DNA of 34,906 nt, taken from NCBI GenBank assembly GCA_937897365.1, contig CALCOP010000155.1, positions 1 through 34,906 of the forward strand, read 5' to 3'. The notes beneath the pieces are model-generated. The model had not been told where the DNA came from and did no database searches. It saw only the letters and a list, made by a program, of their open reading frames with translations. Of this stretch, positions 1 to 29,260 are shown piece by piece; the stretch's first letter is position 1; each line of letters starts with the position of its first letter. Both the position numbers and the translations under genes were made by a program. The DNA is from an uncultured euryarchaeote (GTDB lineage Archaea; Thermoplasmatota; Poseidoniia; Poseidoniales; Poseidoniaceae).

Positions 1-2163
1 AGAGATGTGCAACACATCATCGTACACACATCGCGTGTCAACGACGCCTCAGACAATTCATGGAACACCAATGGTGCAAATCATGATGTGAGTCATAAAT
101 ATGGATACGGAGTTATTGATGCCGGAGCAGCTGTTGCAATGGCAGAAACATGGATTTCTGTTGATGAAGAGACATATGTTTCATCTGGAACTCTTAACTG
201 CTTACAATGTGATATTCCTGATAACAGTCCAAACTTTGTTTCCGTAAACACGACGGTTACTGAACCAATTCGAGTAGAAAATGTGGATGTAATCGTCGAT
301 ATTACTCATGAATTTAGAGGGGATTTAGAAATGATATTGACAAGTCCTGATGGCACACGTAGTATTCTCAGCGAAAAGCATAGTGACGAAGGTCAAGATT
401 TCAGTAACTGGCGTTTTTCGACTGTTCACCACTGGGATGAGGACAGTCGCGGAGAATGGACGCTGACCGTCGAAGATCAGGGGAACAATGATGTTGGCTC
501 CCTTGACTCTTGGGAATTGATTGTCTATGGGACTGAAATCAATGTTGATACAGACGGTGATAATTTAACAAACTCCAACGAAACGGATATTTACGGAACC
601 GATCCTGAAGACTATGACACTGATGATGACACAATAAGCGATGGCGATGAAGTCCTCGTTTTTGGTACCAACCCGCTTCTCAGTGACACCGATGGTGATG
701 GATTGTCAGATGGAGTTGAAATCAATGTCAACGGAACTGACCCGTTGGACAACGATACAGATGGTGATTTGTTACTCGATGGAGAAGAGGTCTTACTCTA
801 TGGTACAAATCCATTGATACCCGACCCAGATGCGGATATCGACAATTTCTACTGGTTCGAGGATTGTAACGATACAAATGCGCAAATCTACCCCGGTGCT
901 GAAGAAATTTTGAATGGAGTGGATGACAACTGTGATGGACATTGGGATGAGAGTTTCAATGAAACTGATTCCGATGAGGATGGACTTTCAGATTTTGCAG
1001 AGTTCCATATCTATGGGACCAACCTCTCCCTCTCTGACACCGATGGAGATTTCCTAAGTGATGGAGATGAAATACTGATTCTCTTAACCGACCCTCTTGT
1101 CAAAGATAATGATTCTGATATGGACGGTTATTATTGGTTTGAGGACTGTAATGATACGAATGCCAGTATTGCTCCAAATATCGAAGAATTGCTGGACGGT
1201 ATCGATAACAATTGTGATGGCCTTATCGATGAAATTTTCAACGGAACCGATACAGACGAGGACGGTTTACTCGACCTTGAGGAATTTCTCGAAATTGGAA
1301 CAGATCCGTTTGATGCAGACACTGATGATGATGGTTTGACCGATGGAATAGAAGTATTATCCACCTTTACCAATCCATTTGTCCCTGACCTTGATGAAGA
1401 TCAAGATGGTTTTCGTTGGTTCTTGGATTGTAACGACAACGATTCAACTCAATCTCCGAACGCTGTAGAAATTTGGAACGGATTGGACGACGATTGCGAT
1501 AATTCAATCGATGAAGATGTTGAACGTGCAAGCCTGATAACGCCGATGCCGTTGTTGGCAGAAGTTAACCTCAACGCCACCAATGATTCACTTGAACTAT
1601 CTGTTTCACTCAACCTTGATTCTGATTCTATTGAGCGACTCAATATCACAGTCCAGTGGTATCGAAATCAGACCATGGTCGCTCAAGGACAAACGTTTTC
1701 TGAACAACCCCATAATTGCCAGCAACCCCTCAATGATTTTTCAATCGAGCTCTGCAATCTCAACGGAACCGTCGGGCCTTACGAGATCAGAGCAGTCGTG
1801 TTCGATGATGTAGGTTTCATTGAAGTAAAATGGTCAGTAACATACACTGTTTGGCAACCACCCGTTGTTGAACAAGATGAGGAAACAATCATCCAATCCA
1901 ATGAAAACGAGGAAGGCGTCGCTCTTCCTGAGAATCTACTGGTATGGGTCTTAGCAGGAATTGTCGTCATTCTAAGTGGAATCTTGGTCATGACTCGTCG
2001 ACAAAATGCACGTCCAATACAGCCAAACCGGCCAAAACAAGCCCCTGCAACATTTATTCCTTCACAGAAATATTCGAATGTACCGTCAGCACCTGACTTT
2101 TCCAAAATGGGAGAATATGTACCGCCCTCAAATAACGAATGGGACACGAACCGATGGAAGTAG
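1..2163 (+). CDS. 5'-truncated kexin/furin-like S8 serine protease: end of catalytic domain, P (proprotein convertase) domain, Ca-binding DxDxDG repeats, MopE-like Cys motifs, C-terminal TM anchor
   Basis: Frame is open from base 1 (RDVQHIIV, cf. furin RDMQH). HKYGYGVIDA motif; P-domain signature (HEFRGDLEMILTSPDGT...HHWDEDSRGEWTL); many DTDGDGLSDGxE repeats; three DCND...P...E..NG.DD.CD units; hydrophobic LLVWVLAGIVVILSGILVM followed by RR. Confidence 0.85.
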   Translation, partial: RDVQHIIVHTSRVNDASDNSWNTNGANHDVSHKYGYGVIDAGAAVAMAETWISVDEETYVSSGTLNCLQCDIPDNSPNFVSVNTTVTEPIRVENVDVIVDITHEFRGDLEMILTSPDGTRSILSEKHSDEGQDFSNWRFSTVHHWDEDSRGEWTLTVEDQGNNDVGSLDSWELIVYGTEINVDTDGDNLTNSNETDIYGTDPEDYDTDDDTISDGDEVLVFGTNPLLSDTDGDGLSDGVEINVNGTDPLDNDTDGDLLLDGEEVLLYGTNPLIPDPDADIDNFYWFEDCNDTNAQIYPGAEEILNGVDDNCDGHWDESFNETDSDEDGLSDFAEFHIYGTNLSLSDTDGDFLSDGDEILILLTDPLVKDNDSDMDGYYWFEDCNDTNASIAPNIEELLDGIDNNCDGLIDEIFNGTDTDEDGLLDLEEFLEIGTDPFDADTDDDGLTDGIEVLSTFTNPFVPDLDEDQDGFRWFLDCNDNDSTQSPNAVEIWNGLDDDCDNSIDEDVERASLITPMPLLAEVNLNATNDSLELSVSLNLDSDSIERLNITVQWYRNQTMVAQGQTFSEQPHNCQQPLNDFSIELCNLNGTVGPYEIRAVVFDDVGFIEVKWSVTYTVWQPPVVEQDEETIIQSNENEEGVALPENLLVWVLAGIVVILSGILVMTRRQNARPIQPNRPKQAPATFIPSQKYSNVPSAPDFSKMGEYVPPSNNEWDTNRWK
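541..1520 (+). repeat. Intragenic protein repeats: DxDxDGLxDGxE (thrombospondin type-3-like) alternating with three WFxDCND...DxxCD modules
   Basis: Directly visible in the translation; coordinates approximate. Confidence 0.8.
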
Positions 2164-6834: not shown

Positions 6835-7019
6835 CGCGGTGGTTTGATATGGTAGTCCGTCTTCTTCCCTCTTGCTCTACGGAGCACGGGATGCACACTC
6901 GCCCTAGGCGGGAGGCGGTGAACGCCAATGAATATGCGGAGAAGAGAGGAGCGAAATCGCAAGGCTTTGAGGCCAAGCCAAATGCGGCTTAACAACGCCT
7001 CAGTGGCGCTTCCACCGCG
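6835..7019 (+). ncRNA. Candidate structured RNA (unknown class) upstream of xerA
   Basis: Terminal helix CGCGGTGG (6835-6842)/CCACCGCG (7012-7019), a cUACGg tetraloop hairpin and at least four further stems; about 57% GC by hand count over 6841-7020. Strand inferred from the UNCG loop. Confidence 0.45.
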
Positions 7020-7029
7020 TTTGACACAC

Positions 7030-8022
7030 ATGCAAAATCTGCCCTGGTTTGAATGCTATATGCAGACCTTAAAAGCTGAAAATAAATCACAAAATACTCA
7101 GAAATCTTATGCCAGCGGACTTCGTGCTTTGATTGAGACTACGCTACCGAATGAAAATGTCCTTTCCGAAAGAGATTATCAAGAAATGACGGTCTTCGAA
7201 CTCGCAGAAAGAATGGAACCACTCAACGGCAGAATTGATCGATGGACGCACGGACTTTCCGATCTCCGTCCTACGACATATAACGCTCGCCTCGCAGCCG
7301 CACGTCATTTATTGAAATGGTTGGGGCATAGGTGGCCAGACCATTTGGTTCGGGCACGAACTGGAAAGCGACTTCCCCGAACTTTGAATCGAAGAGAAAT
7401 GACAATGGTTTTGGAAGCTTCTGCGAAAAGTGAAGACCCCGTTGCATCAATCGTGGTTACTATGATGCTCGACACGGGTTTGCGTGTGAGTGAAGTTTGT
7501 AATCTCAACCGAAATGACATCGACCTCGAGGATGGCTCTGCTCGTGTCTACGGCGGCAAGGGTGACAAGGATCGATTGGTACTCTTTACTCGGCGAACGC
7601 TTGAGCGAATCCATGCATGGATTCCCATTCGCGATGCTCGCGTGCGAGATGATGATTTTGCTTTCCTTTTGAATTCCGCTGGAAGACGCCTCCAACCTCG
7701 TGGAGTCCAACGATTGATGGACTCACTTGCCCAAGATGCTGGCCTTCCAAAAGGCAAATTGACACCTCACGTTTTGCGTCACAATTTTGCTACGGGACTC
7801 TTGGAAAGAGGAGCGGACTTAGTGACCATTCAACGACTACTCGGCCATTCGAGCATAGCAACGACGCGAGTATATCTTGAGATATCAGACCAAACATTGC
7901 GTGAAGTCTATCACCGAGCTCAAGCAACTCGCGAAACGCTTGAATCGGCTGCAGCACGTCCAGAAGATGAGCAGGAACTCATTGATACGACACCTTCAAC
8001 CAGTTCCATTGGAATCGAGTGA
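7030..8022 (+). CDS. xerA: XerA/XerC-D family tyrosine recombinase
   Basis: Catalytic R-K-H-R-H-Y set: TGLRVSE, GKGDKDR, HVLRHNFAT, LGHSS, TRVY. N-terminal SAM-like domain (KSQNTQKSY). Start at ATG 7030 preferred; the ORF is open from 6928. Confidence 0.85.
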   Translation: MQNLPWFECYMQTLKAENKSQNTQKSYASGLRALIETTLPNENVLSERDYQEMTVFELAERMEPLNGRIDRWTHGLSDLRPTTYNARLAAARHLLKWLGHRWPDHLVRARTGKRLPRTLNRREMTMVLEASAKSEDPVASIVVTMMLDTGLRVSEVCNLNRNDIDLEDGSARVYGGKGDKDRLVLFTRRTLERIHAWIPIRDARVRDDDFAFLLNSAGRRLQPRGVQRLMDSLAQDAGLPKGKLTPHVLRHNFATGLLERGADLVTIQRLLGHSSIATTRVYLEISDQTLREVYHRAQATRETLESAAARPEDEQELIDTTPSTSSIGIE

Positions 8023-22618: not shown

Positions 22619-23383
22619 TTGAGCAGTGTGGAAGATATTGATACCGCCCTAACCTTGCTTCAAAACAAGTTACGTCGCCGAATTCTCGAACGGTTAGTTC
22701 GAGAGCCGCATTACCCAATGCAACTTGCGGAATTACTCGATGTAAGTCAGCAAGCAATCGTCAAACACTTGAAGGAATTAGAACGCGGTAATTTCGTTAC
22801 GAAGATGAAAGTGGCAAGTGAGAAAGGAGGCCCACCGAGAACAATCTACAGCGTTCAACAATCGCTTTCACTGCGAATTGACCTGGGACCGGACCTCTTT
22901 CTTTGTGAACAAAGACAATTGCCTGCCGGAGGCCCAATGCGGCTCTCAAATCGATTACCGAATGCAACTGAAAATGTCGTTCAATCCGTCAGTGGAAGGA
23001 AGAAAATCTCAGTAGGTGAAGGCATGGCTCATATTCAACACTTGAACAGCATTCTTGAAGATATTGATTCACAGCGCGATGCTGTAATCGCTTTACATCA
23101 ACACATCCGCAATCGAATTTCTGCTGGAGTAGATTCTGACTTCGAACATTATGAGCAGCGAACTATGGTTCACAGCCTCATTGAAGCTCCTGAACGGAAA
23201 TTAGACCTCACAAATTTAAGACGCGAATTGCAAATCGGTCAATCCGAAATGGCAAACCTACTCGATGAAGTTCGAAACCGTCTTGAGCGGCAACTCTCTG
23301 ATCGTGCAGGTCAAATCATCGCTGCTCCAAACAACTCAAATCTGCGATTCTGGCTCGGCTCACTCCCTCAAAAGAAGAAGTGA
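22619..23383 (+). CDS. ArsR-type winged-HTH transcriptional regulator with coiled-coil C-terminus
   Basis: LQNKLRRRILERL...YPMQLAELLDVSQQAIVKHLKELE...GPPRTIY. Confidence 0.85.
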   Translation: MSSVEDIDTALTLLQNKLRRRILERLVREPHYPMQLAELLDVSQQAIVKHLKELERGNFVTKMKVASEKGGPPRTIYSVQQSLSLRIDLGPDLFLCEQRQLPAGGPMRLSNRLPNATENVVQSVSGRKKISVGEGMAHIQHLNSILEDIDSQRDAVIALHQHIRNRISAGVDSDFEHYEQRTMVHSLIEAPERKLDLTNLRRELQIGQSEMANLLDEVRNRLERQLSDRAGQIIAAPNNSNLRFWLGSLPQKKK

Positions 23384-23410: not shown

Positions 23411-26400
23411 TCAGTCTTCAGCGCCGGCCAAGACCGACACGAGGGATGATTGCTCAGCCTTTCGATCCAAGACATCCTGGCGGCGTCCACGACCAACGAG
23501 GTACACAACACCGAACAGAGCGAATGTCAACAGAATTACTGCAAATGGCAGAGCTGTCTTACCAACAACCTCGCCAGCGACATCTATTATGCCACCAGTT
23601 GATTTCAGTTCATTCTCAACAGGTTTGACGTTATCACTTTCTTGAGTCTCCACGATTTCATTGGATGGGTCGACGACCACATAAACGCCGTGACTTCCCG
23701 CAGATACTGGATAGAGAAGAACCAATTCGATTTCTTTGTAATCTTCAGAATCATCTGGAGCAAGGAGTGCACCAATGACTTGACGCATGACAATGCTTTC
23801 ATCATCGCAACCGTTCTTCTTGATTTCGTTAATCGTATCAGTATCGGAAGCATCCGAGTATTCACACAACACAATTTCAATGTCGGTCGCATGGGTATTT
23901 CCATCATTCCGCAGAACAACACGAACTGGAATCGTTGTATCAACGTCTCCCGTATCATCAGAAACGCTCACTTCAGCGAGAACCAAGTTCGGAGCACGCA
24001 ATCGAAGTGTAACGATGAATTCATTCGTATCAAGGCTTTCAGCAGCCCACGATGGTGAATCATCATGGTCTCCGCCTTCGGCCATATTACCCATCTTGGA
24101 AACCACCTTCAATCCAATACTGCGTGTATCAAGTACTGCAGACGGCGCAATCTTAACGATTGCAACAACCGGGTAAGTCGTGTAAGGATCCATCATTGGC
24201 ATGAAATATCGTTCATCGGATTCAAGGTAGACACAGCGATCACTCAAGTCGGCAAAGGCTGTTGCGGGGTCGATGGCTGCATCTTCATCACCATTGACCG
24301 TATCAAGAGAAGCAACTATTTCACACGGTTCTTCCGTAGTCAAATCTGTTCCAATTTGTTTGACTAAGCGCCATTCAACAGACCATCCATCAAGTGCGCC
24401 CATTCCAGGTAACTCGTTCCAAATCAACGCTTCACCATCACGGTTAGCGGTGTGGTTGTTGAGAGTTGGCCAGTCCGGGACGTTACCGTTGTTCGTAATG
24501 TTCAACTCGAAACGCACAATACGCCCTGGCGCTGAAGTCTTGATTGCATTATCAACAGTTGAATCCATGCTGATTTGCATATCGTAGAATTCCTGAACAT
24601 AGACGGGCATGCTTTGCGTAAAGCGCAAGCGTGTGAGCCGTCCACTTGCATCTGGGTAGGATTCTTCTGAGAAGGTCTGGAAGACAACCATATAGACGCC
24701 AGCTTCGACTTGGTCCGGGATATTCATGGTGATATCGAAGATTTGGTCCGTATCACGAGATAATTCCTTGAGTGTTTCACGTGGAATGTCGATATCCCAA
24801 AGAACGTCAACACCAGCAGGGTCCGTAACTCGAGCCAAACGATAATCGAAACGATCAGGTCCGTTACCAAGGTTGGTTACTGTGGTCGACACAATGATCT
24901 GCTGACCTGGATTTACCGGGAGTACTTCTTGCCCATCGAGTGTCATCATATCGACATCGTCGATATCTGCGTCTGCAACCAATGAGTAAACATGGTTAAC
25001 ATTCGTCGACAAAATCTTAGATGCTGAAATTCGCGGGTATCCATCAAGATATGCCTTCAAGATAACTGCTGGGCCAAGGCCTGCCGATGCACCGGTTGGC
25101 GCACATACTTCGACGCCTACTTCGTAAGTGATGTATTCAGCACCTGGCGGGATTGTCCACGCTCGAGGTTCGCTGACATCCACAGAGTTGCCTCCGGGAG
25201 CATTCGAGAAGTCAAGATTCACGACCCAATTGTCAACACGCCACGCATCCATGGAAATGGTGTCTGGCTTCGCTTCCGGCGCACCGGGGGTGACGAAGAC
25301 TAAACTTCCAGAATCAAAGTTCTTGGTTACATCAATCGGATAAGTGACACATTCTCCTGGGTCAACATACTCGCTGGTATCGAAGATTTCCATAACGATG
25401 TTACCTGTCGAACGAATTGATACGAATACGCCGAGTTCAAGAACATCGTATGTGCCCTTTTCAATTGACTTAATCGGCTCACCTTCAGACCAACCTTTGA
25501 GATAAATCACGAATGCACCGGGATCCTCAGATGTAGGAACCAGCACTTCCAAATTCTTCGTAACCGACTGTCCAGGGTCCAGTTCAACACTCGTTGGGAA
25601 ATTAACAGCCCAATTGAACGGCAACAACCATTCTTGCTGTCCTTCCAAGGTGTATGGATCCCAGAAAATGAAGCGATCATTAACGTTACCAGTATTGGTA
25701 ATTGTAATGGAGAATATCGCAGTTTGACCTTGCTCGACATCGGCCATACTGTGCGATGTATCGAGGTTAATTCCGTGTACGACATCCATCAAAGTACGGG
25801 TCACCAAGTCTGATTGAATAGCGGGGTCTTTGTAGGATTTCGCCGTCACTGAAATATCTGCAATTTGGTCTGCATCTGCTTGATAGACAGACGGAGCACG
25901 CACTCGCATGTAGAAGCGAATATCCTCTCCTCCTTCAAGGAAAATAGCGGTGTCTGGCATGATTGTCGTATGGTTATCTGCGAAGAACAAGGTTGCCGTC
26001 CAGTTTTGTGGTACGCCTGAAATGTTGAGGCCAAACGTATCTGCAACGAGGTCTTTAGGACCCGGTGTCGAGTTGTTCATCGACATGTTGTAGATGGTTT
26101 GCTGTCCTGGTTCAATGACGTGATAGAATGTTTCACCATCTTGGAAATCGACATCGACTTGGCCTGTTAGAACGTGCGAATAACAAATTGTGAAGCGATT
26201 GTTATTGGCTTCTTCACTGCACTTGTTGGTGTCAGACCAAGCTATGTGGGCACCACTTCCCAAATCATTTGAGAATGCTGGAGGCATCCCAATACTCGGC
26301 TGACTTCCAGAATTCGGACCGAGTTTATTGCTCGCCCAAGAAGTAACTGCTACAGTTTCCCAAGGGTCTAATGCAGTAAGTCCAGGTCCGGTGAGGTCAG

Positions 26401-28501
26401 TCGAGTTCAAACGGGTGTAGAGAATCTCTTCATCTGCAGTAGCGTTTCCTGAATCGACCCAAGCGATGTGGACATTGTTTTGATCATCGGTGAGGAGAGC
26501 TGGGAATACAGAGTTGCCACCGTATGGGCGGTTGCCTGGAAGTCCGGAATTACCTTCTACATTCGAGATTGGAGTGTCTTGAATTTTCTTAATTGCATAG
26601 GTAGAGAGGCCTTGGTCTGCTCCATCCCATGCACCTGCTCCTTGCAATCGTAGCTTGGTGTAGAAGACTTCGTAATTCACGCCCTTTTCGAATCCATAGT
26701 TTCGACCATCCATCCAAGCAATGTGGGTGTTGCCTTGCATATCGACACCAATTGATGGGTGGAATGAATAAGCGTCATCGATGGTTACTCGAGTGTCGTT
26801 AACGACAACAAGATGGCCGTCTGCTCCTGCGCCAGTATCTTCAGCGTAAGAGCCGCCGACAATGGAGTGACCAGTTGCACCAGGAACCCATGATTGATCG
26901 TTGTTCATCTTTCCGTAGGGGTCAAGAATTGACATGTAAATTTCACGGGAATTGTTGGTCGAGATGTAGACCATTGCTTCGACAAGAAGAGCCATTGCGT
27001 TTGCACCGCCGCTTCCGGATGGGAATTCGTATGCTTGGCCACCAGCGTCGGAGCTGCGTAGAGTATTACCCGGACAGTTTCGAGTTGAGGTGGATACAAC
27101 GCTGTTTGGACATTGAACCAAGTCCATGAAGTGAGACTGAATGTTTCCTGCTCCACCGTAACCCTGTCCATAGAGGCCGACTGGAATGACACCAGCGGTA
27201 ATACAGTTGTCGTGAGCCTCTTCTATCGAAGTGAGATCATCTGCTTGCTGAGACGGGTCGCCATCTTTCGGACCTTCATCTGAAACTGGAATAACAATCT
27301 TCGTTGCGTTCGGGTTCCAGCGGTGGTCGTCTTGGGTTGGAGGGTTTCCTGGAACGTTACCATTGGAATCTTTCCATGAGAGACAAGCCCAGTTACTTCC
27401 AGGACCCCAGTCTTCGCCGGAGTATCCAGAATAGGTATTACCGTTGTAAACAGTACCTGGTAACTTGCGGATACCACCAGAATCGTCACCTGGGAATTGC
27501 CCAAGGGGTGTTGTTCGTGGGCCGGTGTTTTGGTTCTTACCAGCACAGTTACCAGAACTTGCAGCACTTGGGAGTGTGTTACCCAAACCGTAGATGGTTT
27601 CGTAAACAGTCATGTTTGCTGTTTCAAGCATTGGCTTAATTCCTTGGAAGTATCCACCTGATGCAAAGTTTCCACCATAAACGACAGTGCATATGTCCGC
27701 CCATTCAGAATACATCGAACCAGAGGTATCGACGACGAAATTCAATTCGACCTTTCCGCCACGAGTATCATCCCAAGCGATTTGAACGTAATCGTTCGCA
27801 TCTACGACGACATCGGGATGACCCTTGTGACCAATGATTGGTGTGAGGAGGGTATCGTCGAAGTTCGTAATGACGGAACCTGTGGCGATGTCTGGGACAA
27901 GCATGGTGTAATAGATTTGAGGCTGATTAAAGAAACGACCGAGTTCGTCATAGGAATCTTCCCACACAATGTGAACTCCACCCTGGCTGTCGATATCGAT
28001 CGCAGGCCAATCACGGTTTTGAGCGCGACTTGAAACGACATAATCGTCAATTGCAGAAAGTGTTCCGTCATCGGACGCCGAACCATCCATTGCCGCTGCC
28101 CACGGATTAAGTACAGTGTAGACAATTTTGTGTTGAGCAGACTTATCTGCCCAAACGATGTGGATTTTGTCGTTTTCATCGACAACCATGTCGGGATGCC
28201 AAATCTTGTGAAGTCCTGGATTCGTGATTTGTGTAGTATCAATCAATGTCTCTCCACGAGGTGAAAGCATGGAGTAGTAGAGGTGGAGGTTATTTCGAGC
28301 CCAAACCACGTGAACATTTCCTTCACTATCAGAGCCAACTGCGGTCTGCGTGTCGGCAGCGGTTCCACCGTCAACAATCTGAATCGCTTCAGTGATAACA
28401 ACGGTGTTTGCTGTGGCAGTTAGAGTTGCTAAAAACAACGTCGAGAGGACGGAAAGCAACATAATCGATACAAGGCTGACTGACTTAATTTTTTGACCCA
28501 T
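23411..28501 (-). CDS. Large cell-surface protein: signal peptide, 7-blade beta-propeller with inserted vWA/MIDAS domain, Ig-like (NEW3/CARDB-type) stalk, TM anchor
   Basis: Seven P...D..G..HI.W.D...I.Y repeats; FVVDTSGSM; repeated ITNTGN/VTNLGN/ITNNGN/LRNDGN strands; VVVDPSNEIVETQESDN (CARDB-type); C-terminal TM. Confidence 0.8.
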   Translation of the reverse strand: MGQKIKSVSLVSIMLLSVLSTLFLATLTATANTVVITEAIQIVDGGTAADTQTAVGSDSEGNVHVVWARNNLHLYYSMLSPRGETLIDTTQITNPGLHKIWHPDMVVDENDKIHIVWADKSAQHKIVYTVLNPWAAAMDGSASDDGTLSAIDDYVVSSRAQNRDWPAIDIDSQGGVHIVWEDSYDELGRFFNQPQIYYTMLVPDIATGSVITNFDDTLLTPIIGHKGHPDVVVDANDYVQIAWDDTRGGKVELNFVVDTSGSMYSEWADICTVVYGGNFASGGYFQGIKPMLETANMTVYETIYGLGNTLPSAASSGNCAGKNQNTGPRTTPLGQFPGDDSGGIRKLPGTVYNGNTYSGYSGEDWGPGSNWACLSWKDSNGNVPGNPPTQDDHRWNPNATKIVIPVSDEGPKDGDPSQQADDLTSIEEAHDNCITAGVIPVGLYGQGYGGAGNIQSHFMDLVQCPNSVVSTSTRNCPGNTLRSSDAGGQAYEFPSGSGGANAMALLVEAMVYISTNNSREIYMSILDPYGKMNNDQSWVPGATGHSIVGGSYAEDTGAGADGHLVVVNDTRVTIDDAYSFHPSIGVDMQGNTHIAWMDGRNYGFEKGVNYEVFYTKLRLQGAGAWDGADQGLSTYAIKKIQDTPISNVEGNSGLPGNRPYGGNSVFPALLTDDQNNVHIAWVDSGNATADEEILYTRLNSTDLTGPGLTALDPWETVAVTSWASNKLGPNSGSQPSIGMPPAFSNDLGSGAHIAWSDTNKCSEEANNNRFTICYSHVLTGQVDVDFQDGETFYHVIEPGQQTIYNMSMNNSTPGPKDLVADTFGLNISGVPQNWTATLFFADNHTTIMPDTAIFLEGGEDIRFYMRVRAPSVYQADADQIADISVTAKSYKDPAIQSDLVTRTLMDVVHGINLDTSHSMADVEQGQTAIFSITITNTGNVNDRFIFWDPYTLEGQQEWLLPFNWAVNFPTSVELDPGQSVTKNLEVLVPTSEDPGAFVIYLKGWSEGEPIKSIEKGTYDVLELGVFVSIRSTGNIVMEIFDTSEYVDPGECVTYPIDVTKNFDSGSLVFVTPGAPEAKPDTISMDAWRVDNWVVNLDFSNAPGGNSVDVSEPRAWTIPPGAEYITYEVGVEVCAPTGASAGLGPAVILKAYLDGYPRISASKILSTNVNHVYSLVADADIDDVDMMTLDGQEVLPVNPGQQIIVSTTVTNLGNGPDRFDYRLARVTDPAGVDVLWDIDIPRETLKELSRDTDQIFDITMNIPDQVEAGVYMVVFQTFSEESYPDASGRLTRLRFTQSMPVYVQEFYDMQISMDSTVDNAIKTSAPGRIVRFELNITNNGNVPDWPTLNNHTANRDGEALIWNELPGMGALDGWSVEWRLVKQIGTDLTTEEPCEIVASLDTVNGDEDAAIDPATAFADLSDRCVYLESDERYFMPMMDPYTTYPVVAIVKIAPSAVLDTRSIGLKVVSKMGNMAEGGDHDDSPSWAAESLDTNEFIVTLRLRAPNLVLAEVSVSDDTGDVDTTIPVRVVLRNDGNTHATDIEIVLCEYSDASDTDTINEIKKNGCDDESIVMRQVIGALLAPDDSEDYKEIELVLLYPVSAGSHGVYVVVDPSNEIVETQESDNVKPVENELKSTGGIIDVAGEVVGKTALPFAVILLTFALFGVVYLVGRGRRQDVLDRKAEQSSLVSVLAGAED

Positions 28502-28612: not shown

Positions 28613-29260
28613 TTAGGCCCATTCAGAAGGGTCAAATCCTGATCCAAAAGACATCTTTTCATCGAATTCAATCTCGTGATGTGTGGACTGATCCGGTTCG
28701 CTGTTCGTGGAAGAAGGAGTGCTCTTGCCCTCTTGTTTCGCTTTCACCCAATCATCGACGGGTCCTGGCTTTCCGATGCCTGGCCCGTGTGTGAATTTAA
28801 TTTCATGAATGATGCCGAGTTTTGCTAACCACAGTTTTCGTAGGGTGTGCATAAATTCATTTTTCGTTAATCCATCAAACCAAACAGGAAGGCTGACGTT
28901 GAATGCTTGAAGGGGTCCAACTTTTTGTTCACCCTCGTGCCCCATGTGAATGCCCCAATCAACGCTTGTTCGAATGAGTTGAAGACGAACATCATGAATC
29001 CATTCCAGCCATGCTTCTTTGTCCTCTTTCATGTGAGTAGCCATTTCTTTCTGTTGACCCTCATCCACTCGAGTCATGCTCGAAACGGCGACAAGGTCGC
29101 GACCCTTTGGAATGACAACAGCAAACATGTGCCCTTGAGGTCCTTGGGGATATCGTATCAAGAGATGCATCTCTGCGCGAGGGTCTTTTTGTTCTTTAAC
29201 CACGAGTCTTTCCTGTTGAACCCATTGTCGGATTCTGTGCATCGCATCCCTCTCTGCCAT
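28613..29260 (-). CDS. DUF2299-like conserved archaeal protein with C-terminal extension
   Basis: IRQWVQQE...DPRAEMH...VVIPKGRD...DGLTKNEFM pattern resembles DUF2299; family call from memory. Confidence 0.6.
   Translation of the reverse strand: MAERDAMHRIRQWVQQERLVVKEQKDPRAEMHLLIRYPQGPQGHMFAVVIPKGRDLVAVSSMTRVDEGQQKEMATHMKEDKEAWLEWIHDVRLQLIRTSVDWGIHMGHEGEQKVGPLQAFNVSLPVWFDGLTKNEFMHTLRKLWLAKLGIIHEIKFTHGPGIGKPGPVDDWVKAKQEGKSTPSSTNSEPDQSTHHEIEFDEKMSFGSGFDPSEWA

Follow-up and report, generated by a model that had tools for sequence, protein, structure and literature searches.

A stalked surface protein of Poseidoniales with a vWA-fold domain predicted to be nested in a seven-bladed propeller

In the alpha subunits of integrins that carry an I domain (alpha-I), a seven-bladed beta-propeller holds a nested von Willebrand factor A (vWA) domain with an adhesion site that depends on a metal ion (MIDAS) and is followed by beta-sandwich legs, one transmembrane (TM) helix, and a short tail. 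A vWA domain and a propeller also belong to the same protein in PilY1, where the first is N-terminal and the second C-terminal, both being arranged in tandem on a pilus. The integrin I domain is inserted between propeller repeats 2 and 3 (PMC4237329), and the presence of both folds in one adhesin is described for bacterial PilY1-type type IV pilus tip adhesins (PMC11331964). Here, we describe a gene from a 34,906-nucleotide stretch of DNA (contig CALCOP010000155.1, positions 1 to 34,906; hereafter, the window) of an uncultured archaeon of the order Poseidoniales, whose product is predicted to nest a vWA-fold domain inside a seven-bladed propeller of another family and at another site than in integrins. 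These archaea, Marine Group II (MGII), are the most abundant planktonic archaea of the surface oceans. On the basis of its predicted structure, the protein is probably a metal-dependent adhesion or ligand-capture receptor, with a stalked propeller head bearing a nested MIDAS vWA domain and a likeness to integrins that would be convergent.

The gene is a single minus-strand open reading frame (ORF) that fills positions 23411-28501 of the window, stop codon included, and encodes 1696 residues; all features of the gene given below lie on this strand. From the N to the C terminus, the protein presents a signal-like start, a propeller interrupted by an insert, a stalk of about 850 residues in which beta-sandwich domains follow each other, a single TM helix, and a tail of 26 residues, this being the layout of a type-I membrane surface protein. 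Full-length orthologues, 46-75% identical over residues 38-1692, are present in six other Poseidoniales genomes. An earlier note, made from the letters of this DNA and the translations of its ORFs, had delimited exactly this frame and read it as a surface protein of integrin-alpha-like architecture. The first 31 residues (28409-28501) form a hydrophobic segment resembling a signal peptide (hydrophobic windows within residues 5-31), which would be cleaved. The N-terminal part of the propeller follows (residues 34-246, 27764-28402) and comprises the first three blades together with strands A and B of blade 4; the C-terminal part, from residue 519 to about 790 (26132-26947), comprises strands C-D of blade 4 and blades 5-7. 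Both parts were delimited from the strands predicted by AlphaFold2 (AF2), the blade motifs, and structural superposition.

The pattern D.{3,6}[HQ][IV][VA]W occurs seven times in the protein, against 0.01 times per shuffled sequence (2000 shuffles). A scan with it returns the seven blade strings quoted in the earlier note: DSEGNVHVVW (blade 1, residues 58-67, 28301-28330), DENDKIHIVW (blade 2, residues 108-117, 28151-28180), DSQGGVHIVW (blade 3, residues 171-180, 27962-27991), DANDYVQIAW (blade 4, residues 234-243, 27773-27802), DMQGNTHIAW (blade 5, residues 587-596, 26714-26743), DDQNNVHIAW (blade 6, residues 672-681, 26459-26488), and DLGSGAHIAW (blade 7, residues 746-755, 26237-26266). As had been noticed, a strand with a hydrophobic residue and a tyrosine stands behind every motif (LYY, IVY, IYY, REIYMSIL, VFY, ILY, and ICY). 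The fourth motif is, also in the AF2 model, the final strand before the insert, and its follow-on strand REIYMSIL (residues 519-526) is pushed about 270 residues downstream.

The head (residues 30-830, 801 residues) was modelled with AF2 from a 42-sequence alignment (A1), giving about 28 propeller strands with a mean predicted local distance difference test score (pLDDT) of 86.7 and a predicted TM-score (pTM) of 0.87. The best superposition on a seven-bladed propeller is obtained with CylK (Z 33.8, rmsd 2.5 Å over 350 residues, model range 7..751). The Photorhabdus PLL/PHL lectins follow with Z values of 27-29 (311-318 of 336-346 residues, rmsd 2.6-3.0 Å), PLL4 reaching Z 29.2 over 314 of 336 residues, and RACK1, G-beta, and other WD40 rings give Z values of about 25-27. 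Since these alignments to complete seven-bladed propellers run across the insert, the model corresponds to one closed ring, and we predict with confidence that the head is a single closed seven-bladed propeller and not two separate partial ones, an outcome that the earlier note had named as refuting its reading. In the strand order of the model, the insertion point is the loop between strand 2 (the motif strand) and strand 3 (REIYMSIL) of blade 4. By the usual propeller convention, the loop between strands 2 and 3 would share its face with the connections from blade to blade.

Concerning the kind of blade, the BNR_4 (PF15892) and SBBP (PF06739) families are unmatched in the window protein itself, either with the full protein (E<=1) or with the head (E<=10), and BNR_4 is weakly matched by two divergent relatives that bear the insert (P0136, E 0.0029; P0143, E 0.00048). 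Among 20 relatives lacking the insert, 16 match BNR_4 at E<=0.01 (14 of them above the cut-off) and 10 match SBBP. Through these relatives, the blades of the window protein appear to be of the BNR_4/SBBP kind and not of the FG-GAP kind. In the insert-less proteins, the propeller is joined to modules of other kinds (LamG, subtilase, lipase, cohesin/dockerin, PGF-CTERM, or T9SS). Across the family, the conserved propeller columns are those of the structural blade motif only. A 42-residue "RIVW repeat" is reported in Methanosarcina surface proteins by Adindla et al. 2004 (PMC2447325), and this repeat may be the same blade type as that of the window protein. The genome from which the window derives also encodes another, unrelated-looking multi-blade protein, without a vWA insert, on contig C13 (locus L002, 577-3555, plus strand). 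It has many tandem D..D..HISY.D....LKYAT repeats and matches the query blades weakly (E 1.5e-5); 993 of its 1517 residues fall within the locus, whose end the ORF overruns.

The insert comprises residues 247-518 (26948-27763), within a few residues of the limits proposed in the earlier note (27754-26950), and is supported as a domain by an AF2 model of the insert, fold matches in the Protein Data Bank (PDB), and conservation in an insert-only alignment (A2). This alignment contains 39 sequences with 32-98% identity, all of them unaltered translations from genomes across Poseidoniales and two outside the order. The model of the insert alone (pLDDT 88.3, pTM 0.89) was aligned to each of 48,161 PDB representatives in an unbiased structural search, where 86 chains reach Z>=8 and nearly all the top 50 are recognised vWA-fold domains (Z 9.5-12.1), the top vWA matches covering 156-195 residues and thus most of each target domain. 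The top row is BatB (Z 12.1, 162 residues), and collagen VI N2 (Z 11.9, 174 of 187 residues), VWF A1 (Z 11.8, 182 of 202 residues), and, with Z 10.8, the I domain of alphaM (chain 130..325) are also matched, together with CMG2, TRAP, TEM8, ITIH1, integrins beta8, beta3, and beta6, pilus-tip adhesins, Rpn10, TFIIH p44, and Sec23/24. In a Foldseek search with the insert, integrin betaI domains come first (probability 0.98; 8vs6_B, 6om1_B, and 2vdk_B among them), and ANTXR1, CMG2, and BatB are also found, every top match being a vWA domain. Moreover, the predicted model has the helix-flanked central sheet of an alpha/beta fold with the vWA element order, beta1-alpha1 ... beta4-alpha-beta5-alpha-beta6-alpha, and 7 of the 39 A2 members match the Pfam VWA family (PF00092) at E<=1, the best at 2.4e-6, with other models of the vWA clan also appearing. 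Because of these structural matches and the VWA hits of family members, the insert is taken, confidently for a predicted structure, as a vWA-fold domain whose loops hold about 90 additional residues and whose sequence falls below every curated vWA model. The model matches almost exclusively the vWA fold that the earlier note had expected and whose absence would have refuted its reading.

Six cysteines of the insert (C271, C319, C373, C433, C464, and C476) are kept in at least 90% of the A2 sequences, which fits an extracellular, disulfide-bonded domain. Also conserved in A2 are the motifs E.WGPG..WAC and NPPT..DH.WNP, which within the searches made are special to this protein family. PF00092 and PF13519 have no match in the genome of the window, which is 85.9% complete (control genomes matched in 11 and 12 of 14). 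This organism may have no vWA-like domain other than the nested one. An ESM-Atlas feature search, which offers leads only, places an unnamed viral cluster first (0.90), with several clusters named VWA at 0.85-0.89. As a separate observation, some relatives (P0129, and the A2 rows L037, L038, and L044-L046, which are second copies in family f3) have an extra insertion of about 330 residues inside the vWA domain. In P0129, it is placed between the last vWA strand and the last helix. The insertion starts with a conserved DFE.G.LT..W and receives no name from Pfam; these paralogues would be a domain in a domain in a propeller.

The start of the insert given in the earlier note, VELNFVVDTSGSM, and the EDWG and IVIPVSDE strings were all found, and they provide D258, S260, and S262, the stretch E363-G366, and D408, respectively. 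The DxSxS motif (D258-T-S260-G-S262, 27716-27730) comes right after strand beta1 of the vWA fold (residues 250-257, model residues 4-11) and is followed by a helix at model residues 15-29; its D, S, G, and S are each kept in at least 90% of the 39 A2 sequences. D408 (27278-27280) directly closes strand beta4 (KIVIPVS, residues 400-407, model residues 154-161, the aspartate being 162) and is conserved to the same extent. For the alpha2-I domain, the MIDAS residues are D151, S153, S155, T221, and D254 (PMC4237329), D254 being the aspartate at the end of beta4. With D258, S260, and S262 after beta1 and D408 after beta4, the modelled insert has the DxSxS and the aspartate of a putative MIDAS in their canonical places, D408 being the candidate fifth residue. 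E363 (27413-27415) belongs to an xE[D/F/M]WG loop and is located just before the helix formed by residues 365-376; at least 90% of the A2 sequences retain it, and W365 and G366 do not vary among them.

D258, E363, and D408 are all replaced in four divergent relatives (P0133, P0136, P0138, and P0139), and this joint loss fits one functional site, whereas P0126 loses DxSxS only. In the group of relatives with degenerate motifs (P0133, P0136, P0138, P0139, P0143, and P0126, and also L039, L040, and L043), DxSxS reads, for example, PSTGS, PTDGS, or PVAIS, with IGYE or VGRY also among the degenerate motifs, while WGPG..WAC and NPPT..DH.WNP stay in place. Judged from their sequences, these relatives appear to be forms of the head that do not depend on metal.

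The stalk (residues 791-1648, 23558-26131) is the only portion of the protein recognised by Pfam and NCBIfam, with matches to CARDB (residues 1504-1626), DUF7507, NPCBM_assoc, and choice-of-anchor T (residues 843-992, 70.3 bits against a cut-off of 70). The several Ig-like domains announced in the earlier note are borne out as far as these beta-sandwich family matches go. The first third of the stalk (residues 791-1100, 25202-26131), which contains the choice-of-anchor T match, is 57-66% identical between families and conserved like the head, compared with 33-48% for the rest; this region may lie against the propeller, or it may serve a separate function. The protein has 14 N-glycosylation sequons, no excess over shuffled sequences (14.0 +/- 3.3), so they neither support nor exclude an S-layer glycoprotein. 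Hydrophobicity places the single TM helix at about residues 1649-1670 (23492-23557), as had been proposed, and the cytoplasmic tail (R1671-D1696, 23414-23491) starts with RGRRQ and has 26 residues and not about 27. Its identity across the relatives compared is 8-67%.

The insert is present in 149 of 151 sampled Poseidoniales genomes, including 57 of 58 high-quality ones and all 22 genera, in open frames of about 1700 residues; completeness is 94% and 84% for the two genomes in which it was not matched. Most genomes of family f1 have one copy, as does the genome of the window, and two or three copies are frequent in family f3. The closest database proteins, labelled Candidatus Poseidoniaceae, Poseidoniales, or Poseidonia sp., are 85-95% identical over residues 30-830, which identifies the source as an MGII archaeon. 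Compared between families, the proteins share 46-56% identity overall, and the parts preserved best are the head and the first stalk third (46-66%). Among the most divergent relatives, preservation is highest in the insert (36-48% against 19-36% elsewhere). An exhaustive phmmer search with residues 30-830 retrieves 1191 cluster representatives at E<=1e-3. Among the best 150 of these, 15 span both propeller halves and the insert with 29-69% identity (P0122-P0130, P0133, P0136, P0138, P0139, P0143, and P0155), and many other multi-blade relatives cover both halves yet skip the insert.

Outside Poseidoniales, 2 of 237 genomes match the window insert in a sample of 301 genomes of the phylum, and 3 of 237 do when a compact relative is used as the query. 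A partial protein encoded by a 5.5-Mb genome that belongs to another family of the phylum (G285, locus L010, 3-1340, minus strand) has four HxxW blades and then a shorter vWA domain at the same insertion point, with the motifs DTSGSM ... EDWGPA ... IVIPVSDE, before the contig ends inside the gene. Since it shows the same arrangement, the nested layout is not strictly confined to Poseidoniales. In a genome likewise from another family of the phylum (G204, locus L009, 21-2303, plus strand), a 760-residue membrane protein carries a compact vWA domain of about 185 residues (DTSGSM / SESWG / IIPISDE) without a propeller, flanked by Ig-like, Big_7, and Y_Y_Y domains. With 23.2 bits, this domain stays just under the Pfam VWA cut-off of 23.8, and PF00092 is annotated in P0275, a relative 82% identical to it; a homologue search with the compact domain returned only four close relatives. 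It is a possible picture of the vWA domain before nesting or after excision. Regarding viruses, no relative was found in a phage collection by tblastn, and 501 pattern matches in IMG/VR include none that could be confirmed.

Genes of archaeal type surround it in the window (those for TFIIB, topoisomerase VI A and B, and aconitase), and the order orf447, SdhA-like, acyltransferase, DUF2299, the gene, ArsR-type regulator (convergent), topoisomerase VI A, topoisomerase VI B, and aconitase is shared by five of six loci, from families f1 and f3; in the sixth locus (f2), the gene alone was matched. Directly upstream and on the same strand, the DUF2299 protein (28613-29260; Pfam PF10061, E 9.3e-17) is cytoplasmic, without signal peptide or TM helix. 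Downstream, the ArsR/HTH_20-type regulator (22619-23383, plus strand), recognised by a domain match, is convergent. Each of them is adjacent to the gene in five of the six loci, from two families, and adjacency is the only sign of a functional link for the DUF2299 protein and of a regulatory one for the ArsR-type protein. The neighbours are cytoplasmic or regulatory; no candidate partner equivalent to the beta subunit with which integrin alpha forms an obligate heterodimer was identified among them, and the conserved neighbourhood includes no hydrolase or transporter. Elsewhere in the window, a partial ORF that runs off its start (1-2163, plus strand) encodes a proprotein-convertase P domain along with MopE-type metal-binding motifs and TSP3 repeats of the bacterial kind, and probably represents the C-terminal portion of a surface protein that is secreted and resembles subtilases. 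Also, a tyrosine recombinase gene of the Phage_integrase family (E 2.6e-35) is located at 6928-8022 (plus strand); no tRNA gene is present anywhere in the window, and no mobile element was delimited there.

If the protein acts as a metal-dependent receptor, the stalk, TM helix, and short tail would hold its membrane-distal head away from the cell. The vWA domain would carry a MIDAS-type divalent-cation site formed by D258, S260, S262, E363, and D408, and an acidic side chain of the ligand would complete the coordination of the metal, in the manner of integrin I domains and other adhesins of the vWA kind. The propeller would then act as a rigid support and perhaps offer a second surface for binding. 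The conserved partner could be particles, surface polymers of phytoplankton, or another envelope protein. In a stronger version of this proposal, MGII would have independently evolved an integrin-like receptor whose nested MIDAS binds an acidic residue of ligands on phytoplankton, particles, or cells, with the C-terminal helix of the vWA domain coupling it to the propeller through allostery or force, and the protein would be the main determinant of particle attachment. This version, which draws on the analogy with integrins, is in our opinion unlikely.

Several results weigh against a metal-dependent adhesion receptor. The sequence of the insert matches no Pfam family at E<=10, and hence no VWA model, and sequence searches of the PDB with the protein, the head profile (A1), and the insert profile (A2) gave nothing relevant, the sole matches being three chance hits to nsp3 in the stalk (E about 1). 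Also, the Foldseek E-values of the insert are marginal, the best being 7.4e-4 (8vs6_B) and only two being <=1e-3. With respect to the metal site, A2 has no conserved threonine at the fourth MIDAS position, in the loop ahead of the helix that precedes beta4 (T221 in alpha2-I), and E363 is a candidate stand-in for it, proposed from its position and co-variation only; moreover, the four sequences showing the joint loss may represent a single evolutionary event. Metal dependence is not general in the family, because some paralogues do not have the MIDAS residues. Finally, a near-universal, single-copy gene in synteny with housekeeping genes is unusual for an accessory adhesin and fits an envelope role.

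This last point leads to the alternatives. The core, syntenic, and single-copy nature of the gene fits a conserved structural role as well as an adhesin, and it implies that the ligand should be something conserved, which leaves a structural envelope protein as the main rival. In this case, the protein would be S-layer-like or the main coat, and its vWA/MIDAS and propeller would contact neighbouring copies or a component of the envelope. Its occurrence in nearly all genomes and in every genus, mostly with one copy in family f1, the gene order kept across two families, and the identity maintained between families over the full length, first third of the stalk included, are what would be expected; a C-terminal TM anchor with a long acidic ectodomain is, in addition, common in archaeal envelope proteins. 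Nonetheless, the sequons stay at the level of shuffled sequences, and a stalked head with a nested vWA domain is typical of receptors and adhesins, not of known S-layer proteins, so we regard this role as rather unlikely. A receptor that captures substrates for feeding, its head holding dissolved or particulate proteins or polysaccharides for the extracellular peptidases and hydrolases of these heterotrophs, would draw on the same fold evidence as adhesion does. The nearest propeller folds include the sugar-binding PLL/PHL lectins and the glycoside hydrolase or lyase propellers GH145 BT3686 and PL42, relatives that have only the propeller are joined to subtilases, lipases, cohesin/dockerin, and LamG, and the ORF at 1-2163 resembles a secreted protease. 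However, the conserved neighbourhood lacks a linked hydrolase or transporter, and conservation in the propeller is limited to the structural blade motif, which makes this role quite unlikely.

The two remaining alternatives concern the nature of the propeller. It could be an enzyme of the sialidase or glycoside-hydrolase type with the insert as an accessory, as in NanB and NanC, given that NanC, NanB, and the leech sialidase L appear among the whole-head Foldseek matches (E 7e-7 to 2e-5) and that insert-less relatives match BNR_4 and, below the cut-off, Glyco_hydro_43. Nevertheless, sialidases are six-bladed, not seven-bladed like the archaeal head, whose best superpositions are with seven-bladed propellers that are not sialidases (CylK, lectins, and WD40 rings). 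Also, no catalytic family model matches the protein, and it is the insert, not the propeller, that is most conserved; an enzymatic propeller is therefore very improbable. The protein could also be a genuine, strongly diverged integrin alpha homologue, whose ancestor would already have had the nested I domain, and this might explain why alphaI headpieces are the best whole-head Foldseek matches and why the parts come in the same order (propeller, vWA, propeller, legs, TM helix, and short tail). Against it, no FG-GAP or integrin-alpha family is matched even at E<=10, the blades being BNR_4/SBBP-like, the insertion site is inside blade 4 instead of between repeats 2 and 3, the TM-scores are about 0.2, and the tail has no GFFKR-like motif. 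Such a homology is hardly credible.

A metal-dependent adhesion or ligand-capture receptor in MGII would bear on a gap in the biology of these uncultured archaea, namely the means by which they contact particles, algae, and each other. Near-universal occurrence, a confidently predicted structure, and a clear candidate binding site make the protein a concrete and testable handle on the surface contacts of MGII, and if the stronger, integrin-like version were true, one core protein would be the main determinant of their particle-attached lifestyle. No published description of the protein was found in literature searches, although the supplementary tables of MGII genome papers, which were outside their scope, may list it under a generic name. 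Rinke et al. 2019 (PMC6461757) discuss archaella, thrombospondin, and flotillin for adhesion, and the terms "von Willebrand" and "integrin" do not occur in that text. To judge from these searches, known domains are combined here in an undescribed nested architecture, near-universal in an abundant uncultured archaeal order.

Turning to known systems, the comparison with integrins that the earlier note had suggested places alphaI headpieces at the top for the head and betaI domains at the top for the insert in Foldseek. With the whole head, alphaL (5e6s_E, E 1e-8) is the best PDB match, then alphaM, alphaX, and alphaE, and the matched chains also include 9t3y_A, 3k6s_A, and 9p97_A; VIA-align gives Z 25.0 for alphaM (7p2d_A) and Z 24.5 for alphaL (5e6r_A). 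Nonetheless, the low TM-scores to integrin heads indicate that the order of the parts is what matches, not the relative orientation of the domains. Extracellular vWA adhesion domains (betaI, ANTXR1/TEM8, CMG2, VWF A1/A3, collagen VI, Plasmodium TRAP, and BatB) share with the insert the vWA fold and a DxSxS after beta1, the betaI domains that lead its Foldseek list also carrying long loop insertions, and BatB, collagen VI N2, VWF A1, CMG2, and TRAP lead the unbiased PDB search (Z 11.2-12.1). The difference is that the window sequence reaches no Pfam VWA model. PilY1 has its domains in tandem on a pilus, whereas in the archaeal protein they are nested and on a membrane-anchored stalk. The BNR_4/SBBP surface proteins of bacteria and archaea have the same blade repeat with other fused modules and no vWA insert. 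The pneumococcal NanB and NanC show that an entire domain can be accommodated inside a propeller (Foldseek TM-scores of about 0.2), but they are catalytic six-bladed sialidases and the inserted domain is not a vWA domain.

With respect to the integrin alpha-I subunits themselves (alphaL, alphaM, alphaX, alphaE, alpha1, alpha2, and others), the likeness of layout comes with differences in each part. The integrin blades are FG-GAP, whereas those of the archaeal protein are BNR_4/SBBP-like, and neither FG-GAP nor integrin families of Pfam are found with the full protein (E<=1) or the head (E<=10). The insertion site lies inside blade 4. Compared with an integrin I domain, the insert is about 90 residues longer, has three putative disulfides, and presents a glutamate where the MIDAS threonine is expected. 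The stalk is of the CARDB, DUF7507, NPCBM_assoc, and choice-of-anchor T kinds instead of thigh and calf, and the tail begins with RGRRQ, without the membrane-proximal GFFKR motif typical of integrin alpha. Also, the archaeal head has no sequence similarity to integrins detectable in the PDB sequence searches. Because there is no FG-GAP, the insertion site and leg domains are different, and no beta subunit is known, the likeness is best explained as convergent, in agreement with the earlier note, which had claimed no homology. This would be a clean case of convergence, an alpha-I-like head assembled from another family of propeller and with its insertion at another point, and it bears on why a nested propeller-vWA layout suits cell adhesion.

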